Virus record (IMG/VR): IMGVR_UViG_3300011335_000447
Span: 1 to 59,386 of that record
Strand: one strand, 5' to 3'
From: a virus
Lineage: Duplodnaviria; Caudoviricetes
DNA length: 59,386 nucleotides
Shown: one piece after another, positions 25,167 to 40,533 of the stretch
How the letters are laid out: each line of letters opens with the position of its first letter
Numbering within the stretch: position 1 is the first letter of the stretch
Translations under genes and position numbers: made by a program
Notes under the pieces: model-generated
Databases searched by the model: none
Told to the model about the DNA's origin: nothing
The model's input: the letters and a program-made list of their open reading frames with translations, nothing else

Positions 25167-25185
25167 CTTTGGGGGGGGAGGGTGG

Positions 25186-25356: not shown

Positions 25357-25405
25357 GGTTCATTCCTTCAAGGTGATGGGGCGGCACCATGCCGCCCCGT
25401 TAGCG

Positions 25406-25978
25406 TTAACCTACGTTGATAGAGCCGCCGCAATGGCAAACGGGCAACCCAGCATCCACATTTTTTTGCGCCGTGCGGCATGACCAGCCGCAATCATCGC
25501 ACACCAACTTAATCATGCGAGTACCCTGCTTTTTTGTGGGCCGTTGCGACAGGTCTAAAGCAGCGTGTTTAAACGCTGGAAGGCTTGGGAGAATGGCGGC
25601 AATCCACTCTGACAGTTCAACGCTAGGCGGGGTGGACGTCCATGGTGCCAATAGGCCAACGGCCTTGGCGACTTTAGCAAAACCCTTGCCATGGCCAGCA
25701 CCAAGGCCAGCGGCAACGTGCGCGACCTCGTGTACGATAGACACAATCGTCTGGGCCGGGTCGGCAACGCGGGGCGAGAAAAACATCTCATGTGTACCAT
25801 CGGCACTAGCAGCGGAAGGCCAGACTTGAGCAATGGCATTCTTTGAGTTCTTGCCACGCGTGCCGATAGGCTGGCCAATGCTTAGGCGGATCGGTGCTGC
25901 GATAGGGTAGCCAGCATCAGCAAATCGGACTTTCACGGCGGATAGTGCGGCATTCAGAAATTGTTCACGTGTTGACAT
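25406..25978 (-). CDS. SprT-like zinc metalloprotease with C-terminal Zn ribbon
   Basis: IVHEVAH...GHGKGF; KQGTRMIKLVCDDCG..PVCHCG; SD aaggag. Confidence 0.8.
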   Translation of the reverse strand: MSTREQFLNAALSAVKVRFADAGYPIAAPIRLSIGQPIGTRGKNSKNAIAQVWPSAASADGTHEMFFSPRVADPAQTIVSIVHEVAHVAAGLGAGHGKGFAKVAKAVGLLAPWTSTPPSVELSEWIAAILPSLPAFKHAALDLSQRPTKKQGTRMIKLVCDDCGWSCRTAQKNVDAGLPVCHCGGSINVG

Positions 25979-26210
25979 GGTACAAGGCTCCTTAGTTGTT
26001 TCTAACAATGTCAACATGACATGATGTTTACACGATGCAAGCACCAATGGCAACATGACAGCTTTTTAATGTTAGCAGAACAATACCTGAACAAATCGAA
26101 TGTCAGGGTGTCATGATGCATGGGTAGCGCACGCAATGAGGCGCTTGCATGGGCTTCTAATGCAATCCTAACCAATGCGTGCAATGTGCGATGCGCGTGC
26201 GCGTGATGCG

Positions 26211-26322
26211 TGTATAGCCGACTATGGATAGCTAGCAATGCATAGCAAGCTATGGATAGCAAGCTATGTATCCCTGACAATGGATAGCAAGCTATGTATA
26301 GCCGACTATGCATAGCAAGCTA
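26211..26322. repeat. Eight tandem 14-bp units, consensus TGNATAGCAAGCTA
   Basis: Period-14 array read directly. Confidence 0.9.
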
Positions 26323-26481
26323 TGGACCCCACGGAGGCACTTTGACGACGACGCGGCGGCTGCGAGTTTAAAGTTAACCCCCTCCGCCCCATGCCCCAAA
26401 ATTTTTTACAATTTTTATTTTCCGCTTGCGCCCTCCACACTTCGTATGCAATGTGTGTGTACTAACATCATAAGGACTGCC

Positions 26482-26880
26482 ATGACCTTTACCAAGTTTG
26501 AAAGCCAAATTATTAAAATGTTAAAAGTCCGCAAGGACATCTGGATTGACGATGCTGTTAGCCAAGACCCTGGCGCACCTACAATAAGGGGAATCAGGTT
26601 GAAGCGTGTAAAGGAGACGGAGGTACGCGGCCCTGATAGTTACCACCCGTTCACTTACACTGGCTGGTTGTATTACGGTCAATCGTTTGCGATTGAGACA
26701 GATTTCAGCAAAAGCAAAAACCCATTATCTAACGACCAATTAGATTGGATGGATAAGTTCGCCAGGGTTGCCGGTCAATACATTGAGGTCCGCATTTTGC
26801 AAGATGTTGAAGACGCGCTTGGCAAGGAAGAACCCCAGCCGTGGAGTGAGTACGAAATGCGTGTGACGAAGATTAAGTAG
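26482..26880 (+). CDS. VRR-NUC-like protein, catalytic motif degenerate
   Basis: FAIET...LSNDQLDWMDKF...GQYIEVR..QDV. Confidence 0.5.
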   Translation: MTFTKFESQIIKMLKVRKDIWIDDAVSQDPGAPTIRGIRLKRVKETEVRGPDSYHPFTYTGWLYYGQSFAIETDFSKSKNPLSNDQLDWMDKFARVAGQYIEVRILQDVEDALGKEEPQPWSEYEMRVTKIK

Positions 26881-26882
26881 TC

Positions 26883-27062
26883 ATGCGCCGCAAGATTAAG
26901 AAGACCATGGCCAACAACCCGCCAGAAGTGGCCGCGCTCAACAAAACGTTCAACGGCCCTCAGTTTAAGTTAGGCAGAAAACCCAAGCGCCGCGAATGGC
27001 CCGTTGACCCAGACCGGGACCGGAAGATTGCCGAGTTCCTGGCAAAGAAGGCAGAAAAATGA
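26883..27062 (+). CDS. 59-aa basic hypothetical protein
   Basis: ATGA overlap with next gene; KIAEFLAK. Confidence 0.55.
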   Translation: MRRKIKKTMANNPPEVAALNKTFNGPQFKLGRKPKRREWPVDPDRDRKIAEFLAKKAEK

Positions 27063-28195
27063 AATCTTGCACTCGCTGTCTGAACACCGAGACTGCCGAC
27101 ACCATCTCTTTCAACACGGCTGGTACTTGCAGCGTCTGCGTTCAAGTCGAGCATAAGTTGGATGTGGTTGATTGGGAGGAGCGTAAGATGGAATTACATT
27201 CCATCGTCACTCAAGCCCAACAGCGTGACGGCCAGTACGACTGCATCGTGCCGTTCTCTGGCGGCAAGGACTCGACCTACCAGCTTTGGTATGTGGTGAC
27301 GCAGTTGAAACTCCGGCCCTTAGTTGTGCGGTACAACCACTGGGGCAACCGCGCTGTGTTGGAGCGCAACAATGCTCGGACGTTTAAACGGCTTGGTGTT
27401 GAGGTAATTGACTTCAAGCCGAATTGGAAAGTTGTTCAGGCCACGATGTTGGAAGCACTTTCCCGCAAGGGTGACTCGTGCTGGCATTGTCACACGGGTG
27501 TCTACTCGTTTCCAATGCACATGGCGATTAAGTTCAACACGCCTTTAATTTTCTGGGGTGAGAGCCTGAAGGAGTACCAGTCCTGGCTTGACCCAACGGC
27601 TAAAGAGAATGTGGACGAGGTGCGGTTTAATCGTGCCATGAACCTTGGCATGACGGCTGATGATATGTGGGAGTTTCTTAAAGACGAGAACCCACACTTA
27701 GACCGGCGCGATTTGATTTGGCACACGTATCCCTCCAAGGCTGATTTGGATAAGCTGAATGTTCAAAGCATTTGCCTTGGTGACTATGTGAAGTGGGACA
27801 CCCGCAATCAAGTGGCCTTGATTAAAGAACACCTTGGCTGGGAGGGTGATGAGGTTGAGGGCATCCCACCTGAGTTTGATTACGAGAAGATCGAGTGTCA
27901 GTTCCAAGGCGTGCGCGATTGGCTTAAGTTCATCAAGCGCGGCTTTGGCAGAACCAACCATTTAGCCAACATTGAGATACGGCATGGGCGTATGGACCGC
28001 ATTGATGGGGCGCTATTGGCCGCACAATACGACGGTAAAGAGCCAGCCAGTCTTGGGTGGTTCCTTCAGACGGTTGGGATTACGCGAGATGAATTTTACA
28101 AGATTGCCTTGAACCATGTTGTTGATCCATGGGAATTTGACGCATCAGCCATTGTGGCTGGCTCAGAACTTCCAGACATGAAAGATTGGATATGA
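27059..28195 (+). CDS. N-acetyl sugar amidotransferase (WbuX/PseA/PtmG family)
   Basis: CTRC..CSVC, YDCIVPFSGGKDS PP-loop, FWGE, KFIKRGFGR, EIRHGRM.R. Confidence 0.9.
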   Translation: MKSCTRCLNTETADTISFNTAGTCSVCVQVEHKLDVVDWEERKMELHSIVTQAQQRDGQYDCIVPFSGGKDSTYQLWYVVTQLKLRPLVVRYNHWGNRAVLERNNARTFKRLGVEVIDFKPNWKVVQATMLEALSRKGDSCWHCHTGVYSFPMHMAIKFNTPLIFWGESLKEYQSWLDPTAKENVDEVRFNRAMNLGMTADDMWEFLKDENPHLDRRDLIWHTYPSKADLDKLNVQSICLGDYVKWDTRNQVALIKEHLGWEGDEVEGIPPEFDYEKIECQFQGVRDWLKFIKRGFGRTNHLANIEIRHGRMDRIDGALLAAQYDGKEPASLGWFLQTVGITRDEFYKIALNHVVDPWEFDASAIVAGSELPDMKDWI

Positions 28196-28734
28196 AAAAA
28201 CTATTGATAGCTGCTTCTGTGTTGGGGCTTGCGGCTCCCGCGCAAGCGACCACCATCCAGGTCTGCACAGGCGAGTTCGCTCTCTGCGCGGCCAGCCCGA
28301 CAACTCCTGTCGCCGGTCAGACCATCACCGTCAACGGTAAGGTGTTCTCTCTCGGCACCTCGGTTTGCCCCGTCCTTAAGGGACCGGCATTGGCCGATAT
28401 GGACCTGACGGGTGGCTCATGCGCCAACCCCGGTCCCGGTAAAGTCTGGAGCTTGTTCCAGCCCCGTGACAGCTACCCACAAGCGCCGACTTGGGCTGAT
28501 GCTCCGGCAGCGTTCCGTAAGTTCACGACGACGACAGCGGCTGGTGGCGGCATGTCTAACATGTTCAGCTTTCCCTGCACTGTCAGGCCAAACAAGATCA
28601 ACGGCACGAAGCTTGCCGATTGCTATGGCCCAATGAATGAAAGCCCAACTGGCGTTGCGGTACTTGCCGGTACTGAGGTAATGACGCAATCACCGGCTGG
28701 TGCGGCTGATCCTGTTGGTGGGCCAACGCCGTAG
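28192..28734 (+). CDS. Secreted Cys-containing protein
   Basis: Signal peptide MKKLLIAASVLGLAAPAQA; six Cys. Confidence 0.7.
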   Translation: MKKLLIAASVLGLAAPAQATTIQVCTGEFALCAASPTTPVAGQTITVNGKVFSLGTSVCPVLKGPALADMDLTGGSCANPGPGKVWSLFQPRDSYPQAPTWADAPAAFRKFTTTTAAGGGMSNMFSFPCTVRPNKINGTKLADCYGPMNESPTGVAVLAGTEVMTQSPAGAADPVGGPTP

Positions 28735-29387
28735 TGCTGAAACGCAGGATCATTGCGAAGTTCTTAATCGAGGACGGCAAGCTCGTTAAGTACAGACAGT
28801 TTACTTTTGACCGACGAACGGCTGGCAATCCGACAACAACTGCTAGGCTATACGAAGACTTGCGTGTTGATGAGATGTACTTCTGCGCTACAAACGTAAT
28901 TGACCCAGCCATGATACGGGCCGTGACATCTGAAGTGTTCACCCCCGTGACCGTGGCTGGGTCTATTCATTCCATGCGTCAAGTGGACGAACTGATTCAA
29001 GACAGCGGCGCAGATAAAGTAGTCGTTAAAGACGCTGATCTTGGGGAAAAAGTCGCTCAAAAATATGGTCGTCAGGCCGTGGTCTGGCCTATTGACTATC
29101 ACACTAAGTGTGTAGAAGATGTGCCCAGTTGCGCAGGTGAAGTTCTGTTAACGGACATTGACCGCGATGGAATTGGCAAGGGGTTTGACTTGGACGTATT
29201 GAAGCGCCAGTGGAATGTTCCGGTTGTGATTGCCGGTGGTTGCGGAAAATTAGATCACGCTTTGCAAGCGTTCAATGCTGGCGCTGACGGCGTTGCGATT
29301 TCATCCATGTTTTTCTTTACTGATAAATCACCAATCAAACTCAGAAGCTGGCTTGTAAGCGAAGGCGCAGCCGTGAGGACTACATGA
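28734..29387 (+). CDS. HisF-like cyclase subunit (WbuZ/AglZ type)
   Basis: MLKRRII, LVK..QF, GNP, DE, GADKV, IDRDG.GKGFD, AGGCG. Confidence 0.85.
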   Translation: MLKRRIIAKFLIEDGKLVKYRQFTFDRRTAGNPTTTARLYEDLRVDEMYFCATNVIDPAMIRAVTSEVFTPVTVAGSIHSMRQVDELIQDSGADKVVVKDADLGEKVAQKYGRQAVVWPIDYHTKCVEDVPSCAGEVLLTDIDRDGIGKGFDLDVLKRQWNVPVVIAGGCGKLDHALQAFNAGADGVAISSMFFFTDKSPIKLRSWLVSEGAAVRTT

Positions 29388-29427
29388 CTCGTACAACCGA
29401 AGAATTTAAAAGAATTGGAAATTAACA

Positions 29428-29697
29428 ATGAAAAACTTACTTGAACAAGTCTATGGCCGTTATTCCAATCTCTTTGACGAACTTGAGGCTGTTGCGATCA
29501 TTCTTCTATCCATCGCCATCTGTACATTTATCGGCGTTCTTGCTGCGTGGGTTGGTGATTACTGGTGGGGTGTTCTGGGTCGGCTTGGCATCAACTCTCC
29601 GGTCAGTTGGATATGCGGCATGGCGCTGGGGTTTGCTCAAGTCGTAGCGTGTGGTTATTTTTGCGTTCGGCGTTTGCTGTTGGGCAGGTGGCTGTGA
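29428..29697 (+). CDS. Membrane protein
   Basis: Two hydrophobic segments. Confidence 0.5.
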   Translation: MKNLLEQVYGRYSNLFDELEAVAIILLSIAICTFIGVLAAWVGDYWWGVLGRLGINSPVSWICGMALGFAQVVACGYFCVRRLLLGRWL

Positions 29698-29933
29698 GCG
29701 AACCAACAGAAATGGAACTGCGCGTGGCGAAGGCTATCACGCGAGAATGCCAACTCGCTAAAGGCGACCCAGTGCTAATGGCCCGCGCTGCGATCCGCGC
29801 TATGCGCGAGCCTTACCCTGAGATGGCCGAGGCTGCGATACGAACGTTTGTCCGAGAGAACGGCGGCATTGAACACGCGCCGTATATGACTTGGCGGGCT
29901 ATGATCGACGCGGCCTCGCCGCAGGAGGAGTGA
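29694..29933 (+). CDS. Hypothetical phage protein
   Basis: ARAAIRAMREP..EM..A...WRAMIDAA motif; GTG start. Confidence 0.7.
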   Translation: MSEPTEMELRVAKAITRECQLAKGDPVLMARAAIRAMREPYPEMAEAAIRTFVRENGGIEHAPYMTWRAMIDAASPQEE

Positions 29934-30295
29934 TGAAGCCCACCAGTGACGAAGCATACGCTGCGTACCAGGAGCGCAAGCGCACCAACCCTGAGTACAA
30001 GGCGAAAGCCCGTGAGCGGACAGGGGAATGGATCAAGGACAACCAAGAGAAGCGCATGGCGCATAAGGCAGTTAGAAGCGCTCTTGGTAAGGGGCTGCTG
30101 GTTAAACCGTATTGTTGTGATGACTGCGGCGCTCGAGCCAAGGTTATTGACGGGCATCACGACGACTACACCAAATTACTTGAAGTTAGGTGGCTATGCC
30201 GGTCTTGCCACATAACCGCGCATAACCCAAATAAGAAGCCACCGAAGTGGGGTCGTACACCCCGCGCAGCCTCGCCGCAGGACGACAAGCCATGA
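29933..30295 (+). CDS. HNH-type endonuclease-like protein
   Basis: CDDCG...GHHDDYTKLLEVRWLCRSCH..AH; SD aggagg. Confidence 0.8.
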   Translation: MKPTSDEAYAAYQERKRTNPEYKAKARERTGEWIKDNQEKRMAHKAVRSALGKGLLVKPYCCDDCGARAKVIDGHHDDYTKLLEVRWLCRSCHITAHNPNKKPPKWGRTPRAASPQDDKP

Positions 30296-30543
30296 CCACC
30301 CCTCAAAGTGAGCTTGAGGCGCTGACGGTGCGTGGCCGCACAGGCAAGCGTCATGCAATGTTTGGTCCGTTGCCGATTAACGCAATTCTCACCGCGCTTA
30401 AAAATTATTTGATACCGCAAAGCTGCGTAGTGGTGTGCGAACGATATGCGGCTAATTATTGCGGAATGAATGCGCATTTTGAAAGCGGTGTAACTCGCTG
30501 CACATACACCGATTGCCCCCTCAGATTGAAGGCCACAACATGA
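30292..30543 (+). CDS. Cys-rich hypothetical protein, paralog of 31467-31739
   Basis: MTTP, ILTAL, CV.VC, DCPL shared. Confidence 0.6.
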   Translation: MTTPQSELEALTVRGRTGKRHAMFGPLPINAILTALKNYLIPQSCVVVCERYAANYCGMNAHFESGVTRCTYTDCPLRLKATT

Positions 30544-31376
30544 CCACCCCCCGCGAGGCGCTTTATGTGATCGGCTGCTCGTGGGGAAACGATAGCCTTG
30601 CTGCCGCGCAATTTTTGAAAGAGCAAGGCATTAACAATGCTATTTGCCTGTTTAACGACACCGGTTGGTCAATGCCAAAACGTGGCAACCATGAGAGTTG
30701 GCTTGATCGTGTCGCTAGATTGGAAGCCTGGGCGGTGTCGGTTGGATTTGGCGTTGCTAGGACAAATTCTGTTGGTATGGAGGCTCTTGTTCGGCAACGC
30801 AAAGCATGGCCGCGCCAGGGGATGCAGTTTTGCACAGAAGAATTAAAAATAAAACCGACGATTAAATGGCTTGAGGTAAACGACCCAGACAGGCGTGCAG
30901 TATTTGTCAATGGAAAACGCCGCGCCGAAAGCATCAACAGATCAAAGACCGTCGAATGGATAGAAGATAGCACCTCTCATGGTGGCCGCAGGCTATGGCA
31001 ACCTCTATATTTGCATGATGAAAAAATGCGTGACGCCCTGATTATTCGTGCTGGTCACGATGTGCTGCCGCACAAATCCAAAGAGTGCATGGTCTGCGTG
31101 AATGAGAACCGTAAAGGTTTACGCGAAACGCCGGAAGTTGCGATTGTGACAATCGAAAGAATTGAAAACTCAATCCCGCCTAGCAAAAAAACAGGAAAAC
31201 ATAAAACAATGTTTCGGCCAGCGAGTAAAATGGGAGCGTGTGGAATTAGAGAAGTGGTTGAGTGGGCAAGGTCAGACCCAGGCAGATACAACCCAAATCA
31301 ATATGATTTATTGGCCGCGATAAACGGCCCAAGCGACACGGATACGGGCTGTGACGCTGGATATTGCGCGTCATAA
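30540..31376 (+). CDS. PAPS-reductase / PP-loop family protein
   Basis: SWGNDS, FNDTGW, FCTEELKIKP, GKRRAES.NR, ECMVC. Confidence 0.8.
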   Translation: MTTPREALYVIGCSWGNDSLAAAQFLKEQGINNAICLFNDTGWSMPKRGNHESWLDRVARLEAWAVSVGFGVARTNSVGMEALVRQRKAWPRQGMQFCTEELKIKPTIKWLEVNDPDRRAVFVNGKRRAESINRSKTVEWIEDSTSHGGRRLWQPLYLHDEKMRDALIIRAGHDVLPHKSKECMVCVNENRKGLRETPEVAIVTIERIENSIPPSKKTGKHKTMFRPASKMGACGIREVVEWARSDPGRYNPNQYDLLAAINGPSDTDTGCDAGYCAS

Positions 31377-31379
31377 CAA

Positions 31380-31739
31380 ATGAAACACGCACCAGATTGC
31401 GATTGGCATTGCGACCAATATTGGTGGGAATGTACGTGCGGAATTGAAAAAGGAAGGATTGCCACTGTGACCACCCCCCGCGAGGCGCTTGAGGAACTTG
31501 ACGCCGCTTTAGGTGGAGTAAAAAGCACGGCAGTTGATCGGTACGAGTCTGTTTATTCGATGGACGTTGACGAAATCCTCACCGCGCTCGCCCCTCACTT
31601 TCTACCGGCGGGATGCGTGGCGGTGTGTAAGAAGTGCAAATCCCCAGAACAATCTAAGTTCTTCGCGGGCGCATATCACTGGTCATGGTCGGATTGTAAA
31701 CAAATAGACTGCCCCCTCAAACCGAAGGACACGCCATGA
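31380..31739 (+). CDS. Cys-rich hypothetical protein (alternative GTG start at 31467)
   Basis: Strong SD aaggaagg before GTG 31467. Confidence 0.6.
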   Translation: MKHAPDCDWHCDQYWWECTCGIEKGRIATVTTPREALEELDAALGGVKSTAVDRYESVYSMDVDEILTALAPHFLPAGCVAVCKKCKSPEQSKFFAGAYHWSWSDCKQIDCPLKPKDTP

Positions 31740-31951
31740 ATGACACCCCCGCGCCGAGGTTCACGGCTGAACAGTTCAAGAGCGCATCAATAGCGATACG
31801 CATGGCAACGCCTGACCAGAAGTTCGCCATGAACACCCTGGCCGATATGTTTGCCCAAGCCGCCGCCGACCTCGCAGCCGCGCCGACGATAACGACTTGC
31901 CCCGGCCCGACTAACAACGACATTCCCCCACCAGCGATGAGCATCACATGA
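31736..31951 (+). CDS. Hypothetical protein
   Basis: ATGA-coupled. Confidence 0.55.
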   Translation: MNDTPAPRFTAEQFKSASIAIRMATPDQKFAMNTLADMFAQAAADLAAAPTITTCPGPTNNDIPPPAMSIT

Positions 31952-32289
31952 CCAACCCCACATACACCGCAGAGCAGATGCGTGATGCGCTGAGACACCA
32001 CTCATCAGCCATCGACCTCTCAGTTGTTGATAACATGCTCCGCCAAGGCGCGGGTGCGATGGAAGAAAACGCGGAACTAAAGAAGTTTATAGCGTCTGGA
32101 ACGGCGGTGATGCTGACAGATTGCAACTCAATTGTAATCACACTCAAAGAGCGCGTGAAGGTGCTGGAAGATGCGGTTAAGGACGCAATAGACCACATGA
32201 CTTCTGACGGCCATGAAGGCCAGATGAAAGATTGCTGGATGTGCCTACTCGTTGAACGCATGAACGCAGCCCTCAAGGAGACAAAATGA
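31948..32289 (+). CDS. Hypothetical coiled-coil protein
   Basis: ATGA-coupled. Confidence 0.6.
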   Translation: MTNPTYTAEQMRDALRHHSSAIDLSVVDNMLRQGAGAMEENAELKKFIASGTAVMLTDCNSIVITLKERVKVLEDAVKDAIDHMTSDGHEGQMKDCWMCLLVERMNAALKETK

Positions 32290-32810
32290 TTGCCTCTCTC
32301 CCGATCCACAAGTACGTCTGGGTTGACTCCAGCTTTATCCGCACTGATGCGGAAGGCTTTGAGCCAGCGGTGTGGTTCGGGCTGGTCAGCCAGTATGGCC
32401 GCGCCTGGGGGCTGAACGTCATGCTGGAGTGCGGTGCTATCTACCGCAGTTTACCGCCCCATGCGGTGGCGTTCTGCAGTGACCCAAAACCAACATGGGA
32501 CGTAACCGACGCACAGTTATGGGACTGTTACGCCGATAAGTTCCAATTGCATGAGTATGCGTATCTGAGAGAGTCCCGTGTAAAGACTGGCAAACATAAT
32601 GGTGTCTACCTGTTCACAGCAGCTTTCATTGACGATGCGTTTACACGCACACCAGAGCAAGGCAAAGAATTTAGCTTTATCGAGTTAACGAACGGACGCC
32701 TGACGATACAACCAACCAACCGCACGTTGTTTGAGGACAAATCATTCACGATAGACACCGGCACACCGAAAGACTTGGTGACTCAAAACACGGTCTGGTC
32801 GTGCGAATGA
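32286..32810 (+). CDS. Conserved hypothetical phage protein
   Basis: GAIYRSLP.HA, QLWDC, GVYLFT, L.NG....QPTNR. Confidence 0.75.
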   Translation: MIASLPIHKYVWVDSSFIRTDAEGFEPAVWFGLVSQYGRAWGLNVMLECGAIYRSLPPHAVAFCSDPKPTWDVTDAQLWDCYADKFQLHEYAYLRESRVKTGKHNGVYLFTAAFIDDAFTRTPEQGKEFSFIELTNGRLTIQPTNRTLFEDKSFTIDTGTPKDLVTQNTVWSCE

Positions 32811-32953
32811 CCGTTACCCCTGCCAAGTTCATCTGTCTACGTGAACACCCTGAAAACGCACGATGGGGTTTGGGATGTGGGCGTGAGTGGACTGGAACTG
32901 CTAACTGAGGTTGTCCGTTTTGCAGCGCGTTTTATGTGAAGGAAATTAAATGA
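32807..32953 (+). pseudogene. Zn-ribbon mini-gene interrupted by in-frame TGA (32906-32908)
   Basis: C..CGREW..*GCPFC..YV; ATGA overlaps at both ends. Confidence 0.55.
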
Positions 32954-34035
32954 CTTTATGGCCGTATCATTCTGAAGATGAAATCAACGCCGTTGTTGAA
33001 GTGCTTCGCTCTGGTAAAACAAATTACTGGTCAGGTCCAAACGGGCAAGCGTTTGAATCAGAATTTGCTCAATTTACCGGAGCGAAGCATGCTATTTCTG
33101 TTACCAACGGCACGACCGCGTTAGAAGTTGCGCTTCATGCCATTCAAAACCCCAATGCGGAGGTTATTGTTCCGTGTCGAACGTTCATGGCAACTGCGAG
33201 TGCGGTTGTCACGGCTGGAATGGTCCCGGTTTTGGCGGATATTGACCCCCAAACGCTGAATGTGAACGTTGATTTGCTTGAAGATCGGCGCACACCCAAC
33301 ACTTTGGCTGTGATTGTGGTGCATTACGCGGGTTTGCCGTGTGATATGGAGTCGATTTGCGCTTGGGCCGAAAAACATTCGATCATAGTCCTTGAGGACT
33401 GCGCTCACGCGCATGGTTCTCGCATAAACGGCCAGCACGTTGGCACTTTTTGCTCGATTGGGTGCTTTTCGTTCTGCGTTGGCAAGATCATGTCCACTGG
33501 CGGCGAGGGTGGCATGGTTATTACGAACTATCCCGAGGTCCATAAGCGCATGGCGGCACGGCGCGATCACGGGCGCTATCAGATGATGGGTTCTAAGGAC
33601 ATGACCCAGTTCCAATGGACTGTTGAGGAGTATGGAACAAATCTGCGTATGACTGAAATGCAGTCTGCGATTGGCCGGTTGCAGCTACAGAAGTTGGACG
33701 GCTGGGTTCGTCGGCGCAATGCGATAGCCAATCGGTACAATTTGATTCTGGATGGGATTGATACGCCAAAGAACGTCACACACGGGCGTTACCTTTACAT
33801 GGCGACAATTGATGACCGTGATGCGCGTATGGCCCGTTTACAGGAAATGGGTATTGCTGCGCGGTTGGGTGGTTGTCCGAACATTGGGCATGAGGCGGTG
33901 TTTGGCGGCATGGCGGCGCATTGCCCAAATGCAGATGCCGTTGGCGAGCGGACTATTTCATTGCCGGTGTATCCGACAATGACGAATGATGAAGTCGAGA
34001 AGGTGTGTGACGCGGTGAAAATCGTATGCGCCTAG
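32950..34035 (+). CDS. DegT/DnrJ PLP-dependent sugar aminotransferase (PglE/LegC-like)
   Basis: NGTTAL, EDCAHAHG, SFCVGK, GEGGM, NLRMTEMQSAIG. Confidence 0.92.
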   Translation: MTLWPYHSEDEINAVVEVLRSGKTNYWSGPNGQAFESEFAQFTGAKHAISVTNGTTALEVALHAIQNPNAEVIVPCRTFMATASAVVTAGMVPVLADIDPQTLNVNVDLLEDRRTPNTLAVIVVHYAGLPCDMESICAWAEKHSIIVLEDCAHAHGSRINGQHVGTFCSIGCFSFCVGKIMSTGGEGGMVITNYPEVHKRMAARRDHGRYQMMGSKDMTQFQWTVEEYGTNLRMTEMQSAIGRLQLQKLDGWVRRRNAIANRYNLILDGIDTPKNVTHGRYLYMATIDDRDARMARLQEMGIAARLGGCPNIGHEAVFGGMAAHCPNADAVGERTISLPVYPTMTNDEVEKVCDAVKIVCA

Positions 34036-34496
34036 ACGACGAAATTGTTCACACCTACCGACAGTCCCGCAAGTGCTTTTTGGCTGGTGATTTGAAGGGC
34101 GCGGAGTATTGCTACCGTGAAAACAGGAGAGAGCATGGCATTGATTTATATTATGAGGTGGATTTGCCTCAACACCTTATGTTTGTTCACCCTGTTGGGA
34201 CTGTTCTTGGTCGAGGTGTTTATGGTGATTATCTTTGTGTTTACCAAAATGTTGGAGTTGGTTCTAACCTTGATGGGTCGCGTCCTACGCTCGGGCGCGG
34301 AGTTGTACTTTTCCCTGGATGCAAAATTCTGGGAGATACAAAGATTGGCAACAACGTATTTGTCCAAGCCAACACGGTAGTCCACAACAAGACGATCCCA
34401 TCGAACTCAATTGTCTACCCTAACAACGGCGGGTGTACTTACGATTTGACGACAAAAAATGTAATTAAAGAAATCTTTAAGGTGACTCATGGTTAA
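34026..34496 (+). CDS. Left-handed beta-helix acetyltransferase (serine acetyltransferase-like)
   Basis: HPVGTVLG, YQNVGVG, hexapeptide repeats. Confidence 0.75.
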   Translation: MRLDDEIVHTYRQSRKCFLAGDLKGAEYCYRENRREHGIDLYYEVDLPQHLMFVHPVGTVLGRGVYGDYLCVYQNVGVGSNLDGSRPTLGRGVVLFPGCKILGDTKIGNNVFVQANTVVHNKTIPSNSIVYPNNGGCTYDLTTKNVIKEIFKVTHG

Positions 34497-34641
34497 ACGT
34501 ACAAAAAAATTAAGAATTAACATTACTATTACGCCTGAATTATTAAAACGTATTGACGCTATTGTTACTTCTTACGAACGCAGTCGTTTTGTTAACGAAG
34601 CGTGTGTTGAAAAATTAAATAAAAGAAAAGAAATTAAATGA
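34489..34641 (+). CDS. Ribbon-helix-helix DNA-binding protein (not in ORF track)
   Basis: RINITITPELLKRID...RSRFVNEA. Confidence 0.7.
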   Translation: MVKRTKKLRINITITPELLKRIDAIVTSYERSRFVNEACVEKLNKRKEIK

Positions 34642-35345
34642 GCGTCCTCTATTTGATTACGGCTCGGGGCGGCTCAAAGGGCGTGCCGAAGAAGAACCTC
34701 CGCATGATTGGCGGATTGTCATTGGTGGGCTGGAAAGCCGAGGTCGCCAAGCAAGTTATTACACCGGAAGATGATCTGGTGATTTCGAGTGAATGTCCTG
34801 AGATTTTGAGGGAAGCGCGGGATCACGGGGTGTCTGTACCGTTTGTCAGACCTGATGCGTTGGCGACCGACACGGCTTCGTCTGCGGATGTGATTTCTCA
34901 CGCAATGGATTATTTGCAAGGTGACTACAATACGGTTGTGTTGTTGGAGCCGAGTGCACCGTTTACAACGCCCGAGCATTTGGTGACTGCGCTAACGATG
35001 AAAGATGCGAAGCAAGCGCACCTGATTGTTGGGATGAAGCACACCGAGCCGCACACGACCTTCATTGGCGAGCAGCCCGACGATGATTTTGTCACGCCAA
35101 TTATTGTGAAGATGGATCGTGTTGGCCGCAATTTGCGTCGGCAGGATTTAAAGCAAGAGTGGACGATGAACGGCGGGTTGTACGTTTTTGATGCGAGTAT
35201 GTTTAAACACAAGCGGTCCATTTACGGCGGAGCCAGGAACTACGGCTTGTTGATGGACCGTTGGCACAGCATTGAGATTGATTCGATGCACGATCTGGAA
35301 ATGGCTCAGTACGCTTTCAGCAAGGGATATGTGAGTTTACCATGA
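34638..35345 (+). CDS. neuA: CMP-nonulosonic acid synthetase (NeuA/LegF family)
   Basis: ARGGSKGVPKKN, FVRP..LATD, NGGLY, SIEIDS..D. Confidence 0.9.
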   Translation: MSVLYLITARGGSKGVPKKNLRMIGGLSLVGWKAEVAKQVITPEDDLVISSECPEILREARDHGVSVPFVRPDALATDTASSADVISHAMDYLQGDYNTVVLLEPSAPFTTPEHLVTALTMKDAKQAHLIVGMKHTEPHTTFIGEQPDDDFVTPIIVKMDRVGRNLRRQDLKQEWTMNGGLYVFDASMFKHKRSIYGGARNYGLLMDRWHSIEIDSMHDLEMAQYAFSKGYVSLP

Positions 35346-36046
35346 CGTTCATTATTTGTGAGGCGGGGATTAACCACTGCGGCTCTCTTGATCGCGCATT
35401 GAAGATGGTCGAAAGCGCGGCTGAATGTGGCGCTGATGCCGTTAAGTTCCAATCGTTCACCGCGACCGAGTTAGGGTACGAGCCGAAGTTGACGGAGTTC
35501 CTTCGGGGTGTGGAGTTGTCGAAGGACGATCATTTCAAGCTGAAGATGAAGGCCGACAAGTGCGGCATTGAGTTCATGTCCACGCCGTTTGATACGAAAT
35601 GGTGCGACTTCCTGGTTGATGAGATTGGCGTGAAGCGCATTAAGATTTCAAGCGGGAAGGTCAAAGACCGTCTGTTTGTTGAGCATGTGTTGGACTGTGG
35701 ACTTCCCGTGATTGCCAGTAACGGCATGGTTACTGCCAATATGTTTAATAGACATTTTCGTTATAGAGATAAATTTACAGCTTTGTATTGTGTGTCTGAG
35801 TATCCGACGCCGCTTTACATGTTAAATTTCGGAAACATTAAAAAATTAAGTAAAGATTTTCAGCGCGTCGGCTTTTCCGATCATACCGTTGGAATAGAGG
35901 CCAGCATTATTGCTGCTGCATCTGGCGCGTCTGTGATTGAGAAGCACTTTTCATTAGATAAGACGCTCCCCGGCCCCGACCACGTTTGCAGCCTGGAGCC
36001 TGACCAATTTAAAGAGATGGTCCGACAGATCAGGCTGGTGGCGTAA
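35342..36046 (+). CDS. neuB: Nonulosonic acid synthase (NeuB/LegI family), lacking C-terminal SAF domain
   Basis: EAGINHCG, GADAVKFQ, STPFD, KISSG, YPTP, GFSDHT, IEKHF, GPDH..SL.P. Confidence 0.9.
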   Translation: MTFIICEAGINHCGSLDRALKMVESAAECGADAVKFQSFTATELGYEPKLTEFLRGVELSKDDHFKLKMKADKCGIEFMSTPFDTKWCDFLVDEIGVKRIKISSGKVKDRLFVEHVLDCGLPVIASNGMVTANMFNRHFRYRDKFTALYCVSEYPTPLYMLNFGNIKKLSKDFQRVGFSDHTVGIEASIIAAASGASVIEKHFSLDKTLPGPDHVCSLEPDQFKEMVRQIRLVA

Positions 36047-37077
36047 TGTTGTCTGGGGGGACACGCAAGATTGAGGTGAAGGACTTGCTTTCTCGACGGT
36101 CTGTTGTTTCTGATTTGTCCCCGGTTCACAAACTGGTCAACCAACGGCGCGTGGTCATTACCGGCGCGGGTGGGTCAATTGGTTCTGAACTGGCCCGACA
36201 GGTCTACGCCCTTGACCCGCAATCTCTGACTTTGATCGACAACAGCGAGTACCACCTTTACGCCATAGGTACGGCATTGCCTCACACCAATCGTTTGTTG
36301 GGTGATGTGCGCGACACCAATCGGATTTACGAGATATTTAAGGCGCTCAAGCCGGAGGTTGTGTTTCACGCTGCTGCGTTGAAGCACGTTCCGATTGTGC
36401 AATCCAATCCGATTGAGGGGATTAAGACCAACGTATTTGGCACGCAGAATGTGGTTGATGCTGCGATTGTTGTGGAGGCTGAGACGTTGGTGATGGTATC
36501 GACTGACAAGGCAGTTAATCCGGTGAGCGTGATGGGGGCGACGAAGCGCGTTGCCGAGATGTACGTTCGGGCCGCTGGGTACAGCGTTGTGCGGTTTGGG
36601 AATGTGTTGGGTTCTTCCGGCTCGGTGGTTCCATTGTTTGAGGCGCAGATCGCCAAGGGTGGGCCGATCACGCTGACCGACGAGGACGTTGAGCGTTATT
36701 TCATGACGATTGATGAGGCGGTTGAGTTGGTGTTGTTGGCCGCTACGGGCCAGCGAGCAACGTATGTGTTGGACATGGGCGAGCCGGTGAATGTTGGGGC
36801 ACTGGCTCGCGACATGATCCGGTTGGCGGGGAAGATGCCCGACAGTGAGATTAAGGTTGAGTTGACGGGTTTGCGCCCAGGTGAGCGGCTTCACGAGGAG
36901 TTGTTTTACTCCAAGGAGACGGTGAAGCCGTCTGGCATGGGCGGGATATTGTTGGCTGATTCGGTGGTTCATTCCAACGTGGGGTCTGCGATTGGCCGGT
37001 TGGAGGAGTTGGTTCGGATCGGATTGGTCGAGGAATCATTGGCTGTTTTATGGAGGTCTGTCCGTGTCGGGTCGTAA
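36046..37077 (+). CDS. UDP-GlcNAc 4,6-dehydratase catalytic domain (PglF/CapD/WbpM family)
   Basis: TGAGGSIGSEL, HAAALKHVP, STDKAVNP, RFGNVLGSSGSV, GLRPGERLHEEL. Confidence 0.92.
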   Translation: MLSGGTRKIEVKDLLSRRSVVSDLSPVHKLVNQRRVVITGAGGSIGSELARQVYALDPQSLTLIDNSEYHLYAIGTALPHTNRLLGDVRDTNRIYEIFKALKPEVVFHAAALKHVPIVQSNPIEGIKTNVFGTQNVVDAAIVVEAETLVMVSTDKAVNPVSVMGATKRVAEMYVRAAGYSVVRFGNVLGSSGSVVPLFEAQIAKGGPITLTDEDVERYFMTIDEAVELVLLAATGQRATYVLDMGEPVNVGALARDMIRLAGKMPDSEIKVELTGLRPGERLHEELFYSKETVKPSGMGGILLADSVVHSNVGSAIGRLEELVRIGLVEESLAVLWRSVRVGS

Positions 37078-37681
37078 GGTTTTAATAACGGGAAGTGAGG
37101 GGCATCTTGGCCGTGCGCTGCGTGCGGCGTTCACCGCGCAGGGGGATTTTGTTCTTGGAATGGACTTGCCTGGGATCGGGGTTGATCTTGAGTGCGATTT
37201 AGATAACGACCCTATCGAAAACCTCATATGGGACATTCGCTACCTCAAGCCTGAGATTGTTATTTGCAATGCAAAAGTGCGGAAGTGGGAGGCTCATCAC
37301 GCGCTTGCTAAGTGTGCCACCCAAGCAATCGTCAACATTGGCTCGATCTACGGAGTATTAGGAAGTGACCCGTCGCTCTACGAAGGTACGGAAGTCGAGC
37401 CAACTCCAGCGTGGTACGCGGCCAGCAAGGGCGCACTCATTGCGCTCACCAAATGGCAAGCAACCAACTTCGCTCCTGTTCGTTCCAACGCTGTTTGTCC
37501 AGGTGGAATTTTTAGAGGACACTCTGAAGAATTTAACAAACGCTATTCTAAAAGGGTTCCTCTCGGGCGCATGGCAACCGAGGACGATATTGTAGGGCCG
37601 GTGCTGTTTCTGTGTTCCGACGCGGCGCGTTACATCACTGGCCAAGTGCTGATGGTCGATGGAGGATATTCGTCGTGGTAG
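37064..37681 (+). CDS. SDR oxidoreductase (PtmA-like)
   Basis: TGSEGHLG, SIYG, YAASK, PGGI, VPLGRMA, GQVLMVDGG; SD ggagg. Confidence 0.85.
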   Translation: MSGRKVLITGSEGHLGRALRAAFTAQGDFVLGMDLPGIGVDLECDLDNDPIENLIWDIRYLKPEIVICNAKVRKWEAHHALAKCATQAIVNIGSIYGVLGSDPSLYEGTEVEPTPAWYAASKGALIALTKWQATNFAPVRSNAVCPGGIFRGHSEEFNKRYSKRVPLGRMATEDDIVGPVLFLCSDAARYITGQVLMVDGGYSSW

Positions 37682-38247
37682 ACATTGCTATTATAGGAAA
37701 TGGATCGCACGCCAAGATGATTGGTAATTTGTTTTTGTCTGGTACAAAAACTTACGCACGACTTGTTTATTCAGATAAAATTGTTTGTCTTAATGTAAAA
37801 AAAATAATTGTTGGCATTGGTAATAGACCAACACTCAAAGATTCGGATTTGTTTAAAAGAAAAAAAACATTTAATTTAAACAACGTTGCGTGTCTCAAAG
37901 TAAAATCAAAAAACGCTATTATCTTAGGAAAAATATTTAACGCCGTTCAAGTCATGCCGGGGGCTGTTATTAATTACGGAGCGTTGGTGCGAGAGAACAC
38001 CATCATCAACACCGCTGCGGTTGTCGAGCATGATTGCGATGTTGGCGCACATTGCCACATTGCGCCCAACGCTACGCTGTGCGGCGGGGTGAAGGTTGGC
38101 GAACTGACGCACATTGGCGCGGGGTCTGTTGTGCTTCAGGGAATTACGATTGGATCGGGCTGCGTTGTTGGCGCTGGCTCGGTCGTGACCAAAGACATGC
38201 CTGACAACACCACATGGATAGGGACGAAGTTCCATGACCGAGTTTAA
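37675..38247 (+). CDS. Sugar N/O-acetyltransferase (PglD/NeuD/LegH family)
   Basis: IGNGSHAK, VGIGN, IINTAAVVEHDC, hexapeptide repeats. Confidence 0.88.
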   Translation: MVDIAIIGNGSHAKMIGNLFLSGTKTYARLVYSDKIVCLNVKKIIVGIGNRPTLKDSDLFKRKKTFNLNNVACLKVKSKNAIILGKIFNAVQVMPGAVINYGALVRENTIINTAAVVEHDCDVGAHCHIAPNATLCGGVKVGELTHIGAGSVVLQGITIGSGCVVGAGSVVTKDMPDNTTWIGTKFHDRV

Positions 38248-39193
38248 CCGCGTAACCGTTGTCAGTAATTCTCGCGCCGAAGACGGGCCGTTAGAATCTG
38301 TAATTAAAGTTATGCCTGGATGTTCTGTAACACGGTTTATTTCAGATGGCATGTCTCCAGCCGTTGCGATTGCCCAAGCAATTATTTACTTCACTGTTGC
38401 GTTTGAAACACAAAAGCCAAAACTTGTTGTTTTGTTAGGAGACAGGTATGAAACGCTTGCGGCTGCGCTGGCGTCTATGTTCTCGGCTATACCCATTGCC
38501 CACATTGGTGGCGGAGAAACCACTATTGGAGCATTTGATGACGCCATGCGTCATAGCATCAGTCATATGGCATCGCTTCATTTTGTGGCTGCAAATGAGT
38601 TTGCCGCTAAGTTAATAAACATGGGTATTGAACCAAATAACATTTTTACAAGCGGAGCTTCAGGATTAGACGGCGTTGAAGGCAATAGCGCCAAACGTGA
38701 TAAAAACGAAATATTAGTTACGTATCATTCAGAAACACGATTACCAGATTACGGCATTAATAATTTTAAAAAAGCTCTTTTAATTTTAGATAAATATTAC
38801 AAAGACGGTTACAACATTATTTTTTGCGGCGTAAATAACGACCCTGGCTCAGAAGAAATTAACAAAATAATTAAAGATTATTGTGATCTACGTTCATGCG
38901 CCAACATTTCTCCAAGCATGAATCACAGTGATTATGTGAAGAAAATGCAGCACGCTTCTCTTGTTGTTGGCAACTCTTCTGCTGGCGTAATTGAAGCTCC
39001 TTGGGTTGGAGTTCCCAGCATTAACATTGGAGATCGTCAAAAAGGACGCCCATTGGCTAGTTCTGTTTACAAATCTATTAATCAAATTGAAGCTGCTTTA
39101 AAACACAAAGAAGATTGGAATCCGTTTTATAAAAACGGTGCTGCTCCTAGAATTGCTTCTAGAATTAAACATTGGCTTAACAATGAAAAATAA
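38234..39193 (+). CDS. neuC: Hydrolysing UDP-sugar 2-epimerase (NeuC/LegG family)
   Basis: SRAE, LGDRYE, HIGGGE, DDAMRHSIS, GNSSAG..EAP, NIGDRQKGR. Confidence 0.9.
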   Translation: MTEFNRVTVVSNSRAEDGPLESVIKVMPGCSVTRFISDGMSPAVAIAQAIIYFTVAFETQKPKLVVLLGDRYETLAAALASMFSAIPIAHIGGGETTIGAFDDAMRHSISHMASLHFVAANEFAAKLINMGIEPNNIFTSGASGLDGVEGNSAKRDKNEILVTYHSETRLPDYGINNFKKALLILDKYYKDGYNIIFCGVNNDPGSEEINKIIKDYCDLRSCANISPSMNHSDYVKKMQHASLVVGNSSAGVIEAPWVGVPSINIGDRQKGRPLASSVYKSINQIEAALKHKEDWNPFYKNGAAPRIASRIKHWLNNEK

Positions 39194-39344
39194 TTTAACC
39201 CAGCTAAACGTCAGGCTTTCTATGAATTTAATTGAAGAATTAGAAAAATTTTGCAATAATGGATTAATGTACAAACAAGAAGTTGTTGAGCTTGCTATTA
39301 GACGTTTTTTAAATGCAGAAAAATCTAAAGTTAAAAATGCATAA
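39183..39344 (+). CDS. Ribbon-helix-helix protein
   Basis: QLNVRLSMNLIEELEKFC...KQEVVELAIRRFL. Confidence 0.65.
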   Translation: MKNNLTQLNVRLSMNLIEELEKFCNNGLMYKQEVVELAIRRFLNAEKSKVKNA

Positions 39345-39579
39345 AATTCCAAAAATTTGTATTAACAATGATTTGCCAGATGGCATTTTAATTGGTTACG
39401 ACAATTTGGGGACCGTTGTTTGTTGTCTTGAGTTTCATCCCAATTATAATTTTTATTTTGGCAGTGAAAATTATAGAGATTTAGTTTGCGAATGGAGCGT
39501 TTGCAGATCACATGCGCTTAGAATTGCAACAATTATTTCCTGGAGAGAAAGTAATTACTTTTGCATTGGGAACGCATAA
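39337..39579 (+). CDS. Hypothetical protein
   Basis: AT-rich ORF overlapping upstream stop. Confidence 0.4.
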   Translation: MHKIPKICINNDLPDGILIGYDNLGTVVCCLEFHPNYNFYFGSENYRDLVCEWSVCRSHALRIATIISWRESNYFCIGNA

Positions 39580-39594
39580 TTTTAGGAAAATAAA

Positions 39595-40095
39595 ATGTTA
39601 AATATTCCACCCGACATTGAGCGTGACGCTATATTTGTAAAAATATATTTGCAAACTGGAGACGGTTTGGATGCGTGTAAACGCGCTGGCTTTGTTATTA
39701 ATGGTTATGACGACCGAACTGTTGCGGAATATTTGCTTGACCGGCTGGACATTCAAGCTGCATTGCAGTTGGCCAAAGAGTCTCAAAATTACAAACCAGC
39801 CGTGGTAGAAATCACGCGAGAAAGCATCATATCTGATTTGGACACAATTCATCAATCAGCTATGTTTGATAAAGACTACACCCCGGCTATTGCTGCTAAA
39901 AAATTGCAAGCGCAACTTATGGGCGTATTGCAAGAAAATGTGCAAGTTACACACAAGATGGATGTGACGCGCATGACCGATGAGCAATTGATTAACATGA
40001 TAGCCTTAAAATCTAAACGTGAAGATTTAAGAATGATTGACATCACGCCTGTCGGGTTAGGTCAGATTAAAAGCACCGCAACAACCAGTATTTAA
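39595..40095 (+). CDS. terS: Terminase small subunit
   Basis: FVKIYL..G....AC.RAGF, YLL, ITRESIISDL; upstream of TerL. Confidence 0.7.
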   Translation: MLNIPPDIERDAIFVKIYLQTGDGLDACKRAGFVINGYDDRTVAEYLLDRLDIQAALQLAKESQNYKPAVVEITRESIISDLDTIHQSAMFDKDYTPAIAAKKLQAQLMGVLQENVQVTHKMDVTRMTDEQLINMIALKSKREDLRMIDITPVGLGQIKSTATTSI

Positions 40096-40106
40096 AGGAA
40101 GTATTT

Positions 40107-40289
40107 ATGGCAATTAAATCTAAAGTAAACTCTTCTGGTAACTATACGCAGCCTGGAATGCGTAAAAAACTTTTTAGCCAAATTAAATCAAGTGCTACGC
40201 AGGGCACTGGAGCAGGACAATGGAGCGCCAGAAAGGCTCAGCTTCTTGCTAAGCAGTACAAGGCTAAAGGCGGAGGTTTTAAAGACTAG
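40107..40289 (+). CDS. Small basic protein (N-half of DUF5872-like)
   Basis: NYTQPGMRK, GQWSARKAQLL..Y...GGG. Confidence 0.7.
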   Translation: MAIKSKVNSSGNYTQPGMRKKLFSQIKSSATQGTGAGQWSARKAQLLAKQYKAKGGGFKD

Positions 40290-40291
40290 TT

Positions 40292-40525
40292 ATGAAAAAA
40301 CCACAGACCTCCCTTAAAAATTGGACATCGCAAGAGTGGGGCACCAAATCCGGTAAGCCCTCTAGCAAAACAGGCGAACGCTATCTTCCAAAGGCTGCGA
40401 TTAAAGCATTGTCTCCGCAAGAATATGCAGCGACAACAAAAGCCAAACGCATTGGAAAATCTAAAGGTAAACAATTTGTTCCTCAACCCCCAAAGATTGC
40501 TAGAAAAACTTCTGGTTATAGATAA
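40292..40525 (+). CDS. Small basic protein (C-half of DUF5872-like)
   Basis: QTSLKNWT.Q.W.TKSGK, GERYLP, QFVPQP. Confidence 0.7.
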   Translation: MKKPQTSLKNWTSQEWGTKSGKPSSKTGERYLPKAAIKALSPQEYAATTKAKRIGKSKGKQFVPQPPKIARKTSGYR

Positions 40526-40533
40526 TAAAAATA

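Follow-up and report, generated by a model that had tools for sequence, protein, structure and literature searches.

Does a sugar-building gene block found in the middle of a tailed-phage genome belong to the phage, and if so, what would it make and what would the product be for? The question is raised by the IMG/VR virus record IMGVR_UViG_3300011335_000447 (Duplodnaviria; Caudoviricetes), a stretch of 59,386 nucleotides analysed here over its whole length and called the window. Between positions 27059 and 39193, ten genes of the kinds used to build activated nonulosonates (sialic-acid-like sugars) are located: an amidotransferase (WbuX), its HisF-like partner (WbuZ), an aminotransferase (DegT), two acetyltransferases, a cytidylyltransferase, a minimal NeuB, a dehydratase, a short-chain dehydrogenase/reductase (SDR) and a NeuC. 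An earlier, sequence-only reading had proposed all ten; each is an open plus-strand frame beginning where that reading had placed it, and each matched the expected family in hidden Markov model (HMM) searches. The genes sum to 7,944 bp, 13% of the window, in agreement with the roughly 8 kb of a 59-kb phage first estimated. The best explanation, considered probable, is that the set belongs to a phage family and converts uridine diphosphate N-acetylglucosamine (UDP-GlcNAc) of the host to a cytidine monophosphate (CMP)-activated 5,7-diamino-3,5,7,9-tetradeoxy-nonulosonate of the legionaminic-acid type. Which genes are present and to which families they belong was computed; the sequence of reactions and the identity of the sugar are derived from known bacterial pathways.

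A completeness of 79% is assigned to the window, a linear metagenome contig, and for such a record it has to be considered whether the block is host DNA mis-joined to phage sequence, or the flank of a prophage. This is extremely unlikely. The block is a genuine, long-resident gene set of a family of ~60-kb tailed freshwater phages and not a chimera. Searches of IMG/VR with WbuX and NeuB returned eight contigs and a profile search extended the set to 13 besides the window; all 13 viral contigs carry the same neighbour genes in the same order, with NeuB 51-79% identical. Seven of the eight first contigs (L003-L009) have loci that span the stretch from WbuX to the large terminase gene (terL), and in all seven the window order is kept: WbuX, WbuZ, DegT, small acetyltransferase, cytidylyltransferase, NeuB, dehydratase, then terL. 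Protein identities to the window are 46-97%. Another relative, G001 (L091), is 60,427 bp long, has an exact 127-bp direct terminal repeat (CheckV 100%) and is collinear with the window, which by this comparison lacks just a few hundred bases. The ends of the G001 assembly fall within the cluster, between the SDR and dehydratase genes, and this terminal-repeat genome holds the block across its ends. The edges of the block were also bridged by assembled contigs of other sequencing runs, a comparison that rests on contigs and not on depth. Contigs of run X5, which comes from the same study as a possible source sample, cover 25005-27037, 27011-30277 and 36779-40294 with 0-1 differences and cross both edges; a contig of run X9, from a different study, spans 25001-27121. 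A joint of 36435 to 39885 in run X10 was disregarded, having only 22 letters on one side. Thus the chimeric join at the block edges by which the sequence-only reading could have failed was not seen, and its view that the genes are not flanking host DNA is borne out by the viral record, by the synteny with G001 and by the order kept in the relatives of which it had asked for a survey.

Three further observations point the same way. The GC content of the block lies within the range of the remaining window, the closest cellular NeuB (the best match among 185,579 species genomes) is just 45% identical, and no integrase was matched among the window open reading frames (ORFs) in Pfam and PHROG scans. 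In a search of cultured and deposited phages, none of 50,697 records matched the block by megablast, and tblastn with NeuB found 3 of these 50,697 records, at 27-31% identity, one of them a Moritella contig. Pairwise ratios of nonsynonymous to synonymous substitution (dN/dS) were obtained for 12 genes, namely the ten cluster genes, the phrog_3704 gene and the candidate small terminase gene described below, in up to six pairs each. They range from 0.00 to 0.43, which indicates constraint and likewise speaks against a chimera, two comparisons being saturated at synonymous sites and giving no value. The loosest constraint is found for the SDR (0.14-0.43) and the NeuD-like acetyltransferase (0.17-0.35).

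What, then, would the block make? The first step of the proposed route would be carried out by a soluble PglF-type (retaining) UDP-GlcNAc 4,6-dehydratase (36046..37077; PF02719, Polysacc_synt_2, 335.1 bits), which would turn UDP-GlcNAc into a 4-keto sugar. Ranked against PDB entries, the protein scores 228.8 bits with C. jejuni WlaL/PglF (5BJU) versus 130.5 bits with H. pylori PseB (2GN4), and its scores for the inverting FnlA/CapE enzymes are well under that for PglF. It corresponds to the soluble domain alone, and its STDKAV and M-G-A-T-K motifs align with PglF residues; in PglF-type enzymes we take Thr-Asp-Lys to be catalytic and Met to replace the SDR Tyr. The 4-amino group would next be added by a pyridoxal phosphate-dependent sugar 4-aminotransferase of the DegT family, in the PglE/LegC role (32950..34035; PF01041, 324.9 bits), with the lysine motif SFCVGK at residue 174. 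In the PDB ranking this protein reaches 249.9 bits with 7L7X versus 115.3 bits with 2FN6, the PseC of H. pylori. The 7L7X enzyme has been shown to form UDP-2-acetamido-4-amino-2,4,6-trideoxy-D-glucose (PMC8040287). The NCBIfam models rank in the other order, PseC (243.5 bits) above LegC (182.3 bits), both under their cut-offs and in a comparison from which stereochemistry is not readable. After acetylation to UDP-N,N'-diacetylbacillosamine (UDP-diNAcBac) by one of two candidates, discussed later, UDP would be removed and C2 epimerised by a hydrolysing nucleoside diphosphate (NDP)-sugar 2-epimerase of the NeuC/LegG type (38234..39193; TIGR03568, 240.1 bits, cut-off 235.9). This protein is N-terminally shortened, missing about 30 N-terminal residues of the model, and its best PDB matches are 5XVS and 5ZLR, annotated as 'GDP/UDP-N,N'-diacetylbacillosamine 2-epimerase (hydrolyzing)', at 141.4 bits, the next match being at 68.3. 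The minimal NeuB would condense the resulting sugar with phosphoenolpyruvate, and a CMP-nonulosonate synthetase, a cytidylyltransferase of the NeuA/LegF/PseF family (34638..35345; PF02348, CTP_transf_3, 50.3 bits, cut-off 22.6), would convert it to the CMP-sugar. The cytidylyltransferase has the N-terminal nucleotide-binding motif ARGGSKGVPKKN, scores 106.5 bits with the PseF model, under the cut-off, and finds its best PDB matches in the CMP-N-acetylneuraminic acid (CMP-Neu5Ac) synthetases 6IFD (92.6 bits) and 1EYR (80.8 bits).

The six enzyme families of the route from UDP-diNAcBac through legionaminic acid (Leg) to CMP-Leg, which the sequence-only reading had put forward, would thus all be represented, and no NCBIfam match to PseG or PseH was found in the window. 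The predicted route is supported as being of the legionaminic rather than the pseudaminic type by the PglF-like, 7L7X-like and diNAcBac-epimerase-like enzymes, by the higher score of the NeuB than of the PseI model, and by tree neighbours from loci that hold NeuC and DegT. Bacterial Neu5Ac is made by the same three families, NeuC, NeuB and cytidylyltransferase, and one may ask whether these three proteins make CMP-Neu5Ac from UDP-GlcNAc while the remaining genes produce a separate diNAcBac. The CMP-Neu5Ac synthetases at the head of the cytidylyltransferase ranking agree with such a division, and the same gene set in another viral genome, LBVG_26, was read in this way in one sentence of a preprint (10.1101/655167). 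It is nevertheless very unlikely, as the best match of NeuC is a hydrolysing epimerase specific for diNAcBac (141 versus 68 bits for the next), the nearest cellular NeuB proteins all lie in loci with NeuC and DegT, and all the genes concerned stay together in one tight block.

The enzyme proposed for the condensation step, the NeuB-family nonulosonate synthase, is reduced to a TIM barrel of 234 aa (35342..36046; PF03102, 204.9 bits). It scores 241.3 bits with the NeuB model TIGR03569 versus 169.1 bits with PseI, falling short of both cut-offs since it has no counterpart to the final ~75 positions of the model. The best PDB match, 6NCS (143.2 bits), is likewise short (290 aa). Equivalents of Glu25, Lys53, His215, Glu234, His236 and Asp247, the metal-binding histidines included, are retained. 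The short form is not confined to the window: in a large protein collection, the 79 best NeuB clusters (49-95% identity) are 220-246 aa long and SAF-less; all are metagenomic, the longest contigs reaching 62 kb, and SAF-bearing proteins start at identities of 48% or lower. A survey of NeuB proteins reported SAF-less forms in environmental bacteria, and its passages used here make no mention of phages or viruses (PMC8208679). The sequence-only reading had asked for a NeuB phylogeny, and one was built from 102 rows by a quick search, with Shimodaira-Hasegawa-like approximate likelihood ratio test (SH-aLRT) support only and with labels taken from gene context. In this tree the phage and short metagenomic rows form a clade of 17 (SH-aLRT 99) inside a group of 29 (96). 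The seven cellular members of the larger group, from Polaromonas, Ramlibacter (three), Pseudomonadales, Nitrospinaceae and a gammaproteobacterial assembly, all belong to loci with NeuC and DegT; WbuX or WbuZ is present in six of the seven and an SDR in four. NeuB groups here with cellular genes from loci of the Leg type.

Two proteins could serve in the acetylation that would give UDP-diNAcBac. One is a small left-handed-beta-helix (hexapeptide) acetyltransferase related to serine acetyltransferase (SAT), encoded at 34026..34496 (PF00132, 32.8 bits). It scores 60.5 and 50.2 bits with the EpsC and CysE models, under their cut-offs, and its best PDB matches are serine acetyltransferases at no more than 36 bits. 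This SAT-like enzyme could be the N-acetyltransferase of the route; alternatively, it may act as an O-acetyltransferase. It is present in all seven relatives L003-L009 and in every contig of the family that covers its site, only 52 relatives of it occur in the large protein collection, and no homologue was found in 80 bacterial NeuB loci. Since it is present at every covered site and has no counterpart in bacterial loci, it may be the core acetyltransferase of the family. The other candidate is a PglD/NeuD/PerB-type sugar N-acetyltransferase (37675..38247; TIGR03570, 133.9 bits, under the cut-off of 160.8), which scores 91.3 bits with PerB, 77.1 with Neisseria PglB and 57.5 with PglD among PDB entries. 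Its gene and the preceding one, for the SDR, start with GTG codons (37675 and 37064), each with GGAGG 8-10 nt upstream.

The SDR, a short oxidoreductase of 205 aa (37064..37681; PF13561, 85.9 bits; best NCBIfam model NF006619/PRK09186, 103.8 bits; best PDB match 6UH2, 89 bits), may tailor or epimerise the sugar and could in this way alter the stereochemistry of the product. The sugar would then be not legionaminic acid itself, as assumed above, but a stereoisomer or derivative (8-epimer, 4-epimer or O-acetylated form) for which the SDR and the SAT-like enzyme would be responsible. This is possible, with a probability well short of even: the phage SDR is kept across the family and the SAT-like acetyltransferase is without counterpart in the 80 bacterial loci, yet SDR homologues also adjoin NeuB in many otherwise ordinary bacterial loci. 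Moreover, EpaB, a tailoring enzyme of Acinetobacter baumannii prophages, acts together with EpaA, and no such partner is seen here. Stereochemistry, in any case, is not deducible from sequence alone, and the D-glycero-D-galacto configuration of the product is a prediction drawn from the bacterial route.

The other half of the cluster would modify the sugar further, one N-acetyl group being converted to acetamidino by WbuX together with the HisF-like WbuZ. WbuX is an N-acetyl sugar amidotransferase of the WbuX/PseA/PtmG type with a PP-loop (27059..28195; TIGR03573, 321.1 bits, cut-off 203.2); the PP-loop SGGKDS is found at residue 67, 8WEX, annotated as 'N-acetyl sugar amidotransferase', heads the PDB ranking (87.6 bits), and the protein is 84-90% identical in all seven relatives L003-L009. 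WbuZ (28734..29387; PF00977, 87.7 bits), 71-86% identical in the same seven, reaches 143.6 bits with TIGR03572, whose cut-off is 299.7. Some bacterial loci likewise place WbuX directly beside WbuZ (L046, L022). The presence of an amidotransferase of this type with an adjacent HisF-like partner, as first proposed, has been upheld; the assignment of WbuZ stays under the equivalog cut-off, and the glutaminase was not found. With these two reservations, the acetamidino step is a prediction that would follow from the pairing of the two genes. In the window, the ORF 28186..28734 (plus strand) overlaps both of them and encodes a protein of 182 aa with an N-terminal signal-peptide-like sequence and several cysteines, probably a secreted protein and no pathway enzyme. 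It is 80-88% identical in five of the seven relatives (L003, L004, L005, L008, L009), was not found in L006 and L007, and has no Pfam, NCBIfam or PHROG match. The role of a HisH-type glutaminase was considered for this ORF and rejected, given the signal peptide and no match to a glutamine amidotransferase even at E values up to 10.

Several observations weigh against the pathway as proposed. No NCBIfam equivalog cut-off is reached by WbuZ, the NeuD-like enzyme, the cytidylyltransferase, the dehydratase or the aminotransferase. The label 'Leg' comes from gene context and from PDB and HMM rankings, the tree containing no characterised NeuB, LegI or PseI sequences. Scans of the whole window with Pfam, NCBIfam and PHROG models gave no HisH/WbuY glutaminase or other glutamine amidotransferase. 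Among the 14 contigs that cover its site, the PglD/NeuD-like gene is present in seven and absent from seven (L005, L008, G001, L097, L098, L101 and L105). NeuB is unusual in several respects. It lacks the SAF domain, which in N. meningitidis NeuB bears Arg314, described in the passages used as the sole conserved catalytic residue of that domain (PMC8208679). The site of Glu134, the Glu of the cellular 'SGE', is occupied by Lys in the window and by Lys or Arg throughout the clade, and E134 of the meningococcal enzyme is among the residues named there as potentially catalytic (PMC8208679). In addition, the whole phage NeuB clade is without a loop of ~14 residues that cellular proteins have. With the SAF domain, Glu134 and the loop lost and the equivalog cut-off missed, neither the activity nor the substrate of this NeuB is assured. 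The CMP-legionaminic-acid-type pathway is considered the probable reading with these points taken into account.

The remaining genes of the window describe the phage in which the block is placed. PHROG and Pfam matches comprise terminase, portal, major head protein, SU10-type adaptor, tail and lysis proteins and, for replication and recombination, a helicase, a primase-polymerase, an SSB-like protein, Sak4-like and Cas4-like proteins (the latter an exonuclease) and RusA; neither a DNA polymerase nor an integrase was matched among the scanned ORFs, and a scan of the window for tRNA genes found none. The cluster immediately precedes the terminase and structural genes and shares their strand, and the starts and stops of adjoining cluster genes overlap by 1-14 nt. 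The translational coupling claimed earlier is consistent with these overlaps, and the phage genes said to be interleaved with the cluster are there and vary among relatives; the statement that the block ends just upstream of the small terminase gene (terS) is weaker, for the candidate terS (39595..40095, plus strand) is assigned by its position upstream of terL only and has no Pfam, NCBIfam or PHROG family match. It is 75-100% identical in the relatives and immediately upstream of terL in them. The large terminase gene itself (40534..43140, plus strand; phrog_38, 303 bits; Terminase_6N/6C) begins the packaging and structural module and contains an intein at about residues 167-511, matched by the Intein_splicing model and by N- and C-terminal splicing models. 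In five relatives (L002, L003, L005, L006 and G001), those showing both flanking parts of the terminase, residues 1-166 run straight into 512 onward; because of this direct joining, the intein is taken as particular to the window genome. Matches to the SU10 adaptor family are seen for two separate genes, 688-1350 (98.5 bits) and 53670-54362 (41.6 bits), and the portal protein has a weak match to SU10_portal (24 bits, under the 30-bit cut-off); these matches suggest an SU10-type, podovirus-like particle. Upstream of the block, the first ~50 codons of 26308-26880 correspond to the last part of an MT-A70 methyltransferase gene; G001 has this gene entire (L091:8438-9145), and the window seems to retain just a remnant of it. 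G001 also has, at L091:9794-13073, a stretch without counterpart in the window that encodes a MoxR-like AAA+ ATPase, an unassigned ORF and a DUF2201 metallopeptidase/VWA protein.

The halves of the cluster are separated by a variable insert of phage genes (29428..32810, plus strand), recognised by PHROG matches and including small ORFs. It contains an endonuclease gene (29891-30295), a gene for a phosphoadenosine phosphosulfate (PAPS)-reductase/DndC-like protein (30513-31376) and a phrog_3704 gene (32286-32810), all on the plus strand. The gene content between WbuZ and DegT differs among the relatives: neither the endonuclease nor the PAPS-reductase-like gene is matched in L003-L009, and the phrog_3704 gene is absent from L003 and L004. 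In a contig of run X10, 29691 is followed after three other letters by 31468, the shorter side of the joint being 24 letters long. This contig skips the same endonuclease and PAPS-reductase-like genes that are missing in related contigs; the segment 29691-31468 may be a mobile insert. A 'ferredoxin' label for the phrog_3704 protein found no support, as there is no Pfam match and the atlas scores do not exceed 0.83, and the gene is not counted in the pathway. Its family, a large one of phages, has 637 proteins whose source names, where shown, are 'hypothetical protein', and its function is unassigned.

The remaining part of the question is what a phage would do with a CMP-activated nonulosonate. 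It is most likely, with less certainty than attaches to the pathway, that the sugar is for the surface of the host. In this preferred reading, host transferases would build the phage-made sugar into surface glycoconjugates during infection, and the changed or sustained surface would, for example, block superinfection or stop progeny from re-adsorbing to cell debris. Host-surface use is proposed on the ground that the phage has no recognisable transferase, and HMMs can miss one. The family scans covered 68 ORFs of the window together with 13 extra ORFs of G001, and no glycosyltransferase family was matched in either set with Pfam, NCBIfam or PHROGs. The same result bears on another proposal, in which the sugar is destined for the virion and a transferase of phage or host that escaped recognition puts an acetamidino-nonulosonate on capsid or tail proteins, with an effect on adsorption, stability or recognition of the particle. 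This is judged rather unlikely. The cluster runs, with overlapping start and stop codons, on the strand of the terminase and structural genes directly upstream of them; no family member lacks it, which would suit a function linked to the particle, and many ORFs of the structural module have no family match. On the other hand, no glycosyltransferase family is matched in the window or G001, and no signal above chance marks a late operon, a scan of 25500-41000 giving chance-level promoter and terminator counts (19 versus 16.6 expected; 18 versus 18.1). Bolder, and less probable again, is the proposal that an acetamidino-legionaminic-acid-type sugar made by the phage covers its virion, attached through a novel kind of transferase, the condensation being performed by the SAF-less NeuB with the lysine at the Glu134 site perhaps replacing Arg314. 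If true, this would be the first tailed phage shown to have a self-made sialic-acid-like glycan. DNA was set aside as a target of the sugar, since no hydroxymethylase, thymidylate-synthase-like gene or DNA polymerase occurs among the scanned ORFs; the idea of DNA modification is also weakened by the absence of the PAPS-reductase-like gene from the relatives.

Host-surface use of the CMP-sugar is retained as the preferred reading, and under either use the sugar must pay for itself during infection, because 13% of the genome is spent on it and purifying selection acts across the family. The identity of the acceptor would tell the remodelling of host surfaces by lytic phages from the glycosylation of their own particles. 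It is also worth noticing that the SAF-less NeuB, the short NeuC and the soluble PglF domain are natural minimal forms, which could clarify the role of the parts that are missing, and that such minimal enzymes could serve the production of legionaminic-acid derivatives.

How does this cluster compare with systems already described? A UDP-linked legionaminic acid pathway has been described for Legionella and Acinetobacter. The phage cluster would use the same six enzyme families (PglF/PglE/PglD, LegG/NeuC, LegI/NeuB and LegF/NeuA) and differs in being phage-borne, in its soluble-domain dehydratase, its shortened NeuC and SDR, and its SAF-less NeuB with Lys at Glu134. Furthermore, the phage family adds the SAT-like acetyltransferase, whereas the PglD-like one is optional. 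Closer counterparts are bacterial loci of Polaromonas and Ramlibacter (L027, L046, L050, L026) and the loci L084, L085 and L021, which combine WbuX, WbuZ, cytidylyltransferase, SDR, NeuB, NeuC, DegT and dehydratase genes in one locus; among cellular NeuB genes, those of these loci are nearest to the phage clade. However, the identities are only 27-50%, the gene order is different, the bacterial NeuB proteins have a SAF domain (335-343 aa), and no SAT-like acetyltransferase is present. The low identities and the differing gene order argue for an old acquisition. The nearest cellular NeuB and dehydratase genes include those of Polaromonas and Ramlibacter, but for the dehydratase Armatimonadetes, Pontibacillus and Bifidobacteriaceae score alike, and therefore no claim about the host is made. 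The acetamidino module resembles the WbuX/WbuY/WbuZ and PseA/PtmG systems in a WbuX above its cut-off, an intact PP-loop and an adjacent HisF-like partner; it differs in having no HisH-like glutaminase, that position being taken by the secreted-protein ORF.

Among phage-carried genes, the EpaA/EpaB pair of A. baumannii prophages, as presented in the part of the report used here, also acts on a 5,7-diamino nonulosonate and includes an adh_short_C2 SDR and a cytidylyltransferase-like protein (PMC12053666). In contrast to the window phage, in which a whole CMP-sugar pathway is predicted and no integrase was found, EpaA and EpaB are two tailoring genes of temperate prophages that need the pathway of the host (PMC12053666). 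Sugar pathways of giant viruses appear in titles of the literature. The Lake Biwa viral genome LBVG_26 is reported, in a 2019 preprint, to carry neuA, neuB, neuC, capD, pseA, an aminotransferase gene and pglD, which were read there as genes for N-acetylneuraminic acid, lipopolysaccharide or capsule and suggested to alter the host surface (10.1101/655167). The same gene set is seen in the family of the window, a likeness of gene lists only, and the preprint text drawn on here gives it a single sentence without pathway analysis. That a virus can carry a cluster of this kind has thus been published before; apart from that sentence, and with the reservation that further details of LBVG_26 may be given in the supplements of the preprint, the literature searched yielded no analysis of a legionaminic acid pathway encoded by a phage. 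Nothing found within that scope covers the reading as a pathway, the conservation throughout the family, the reduced NeuB or the lack of a transferase. A second, larger viral group (L106-L172; 15-155 kb) was also observed, with NeuB at 35-43% and dehydratase at ~30-37% identity and with nearly all members lacking NeuC. In L106:3610-13647, a PseB-like dehydratase, a HemL-like aminotransferase, a cytidylyltransferase and a Gfo/Idh/MocA-type oxidoreductase are encoded along with a full-length, SAF-bearing NeuB, a PseH-like acetyltransferase and a weak glycosyltransferase match. By these family assignments, the L106-type cluster is predicted to be a different viral nonulosonate-type pathway and, because this second group is the more numerous, the viral nonulosonate theme may exceed what the literature suggests.

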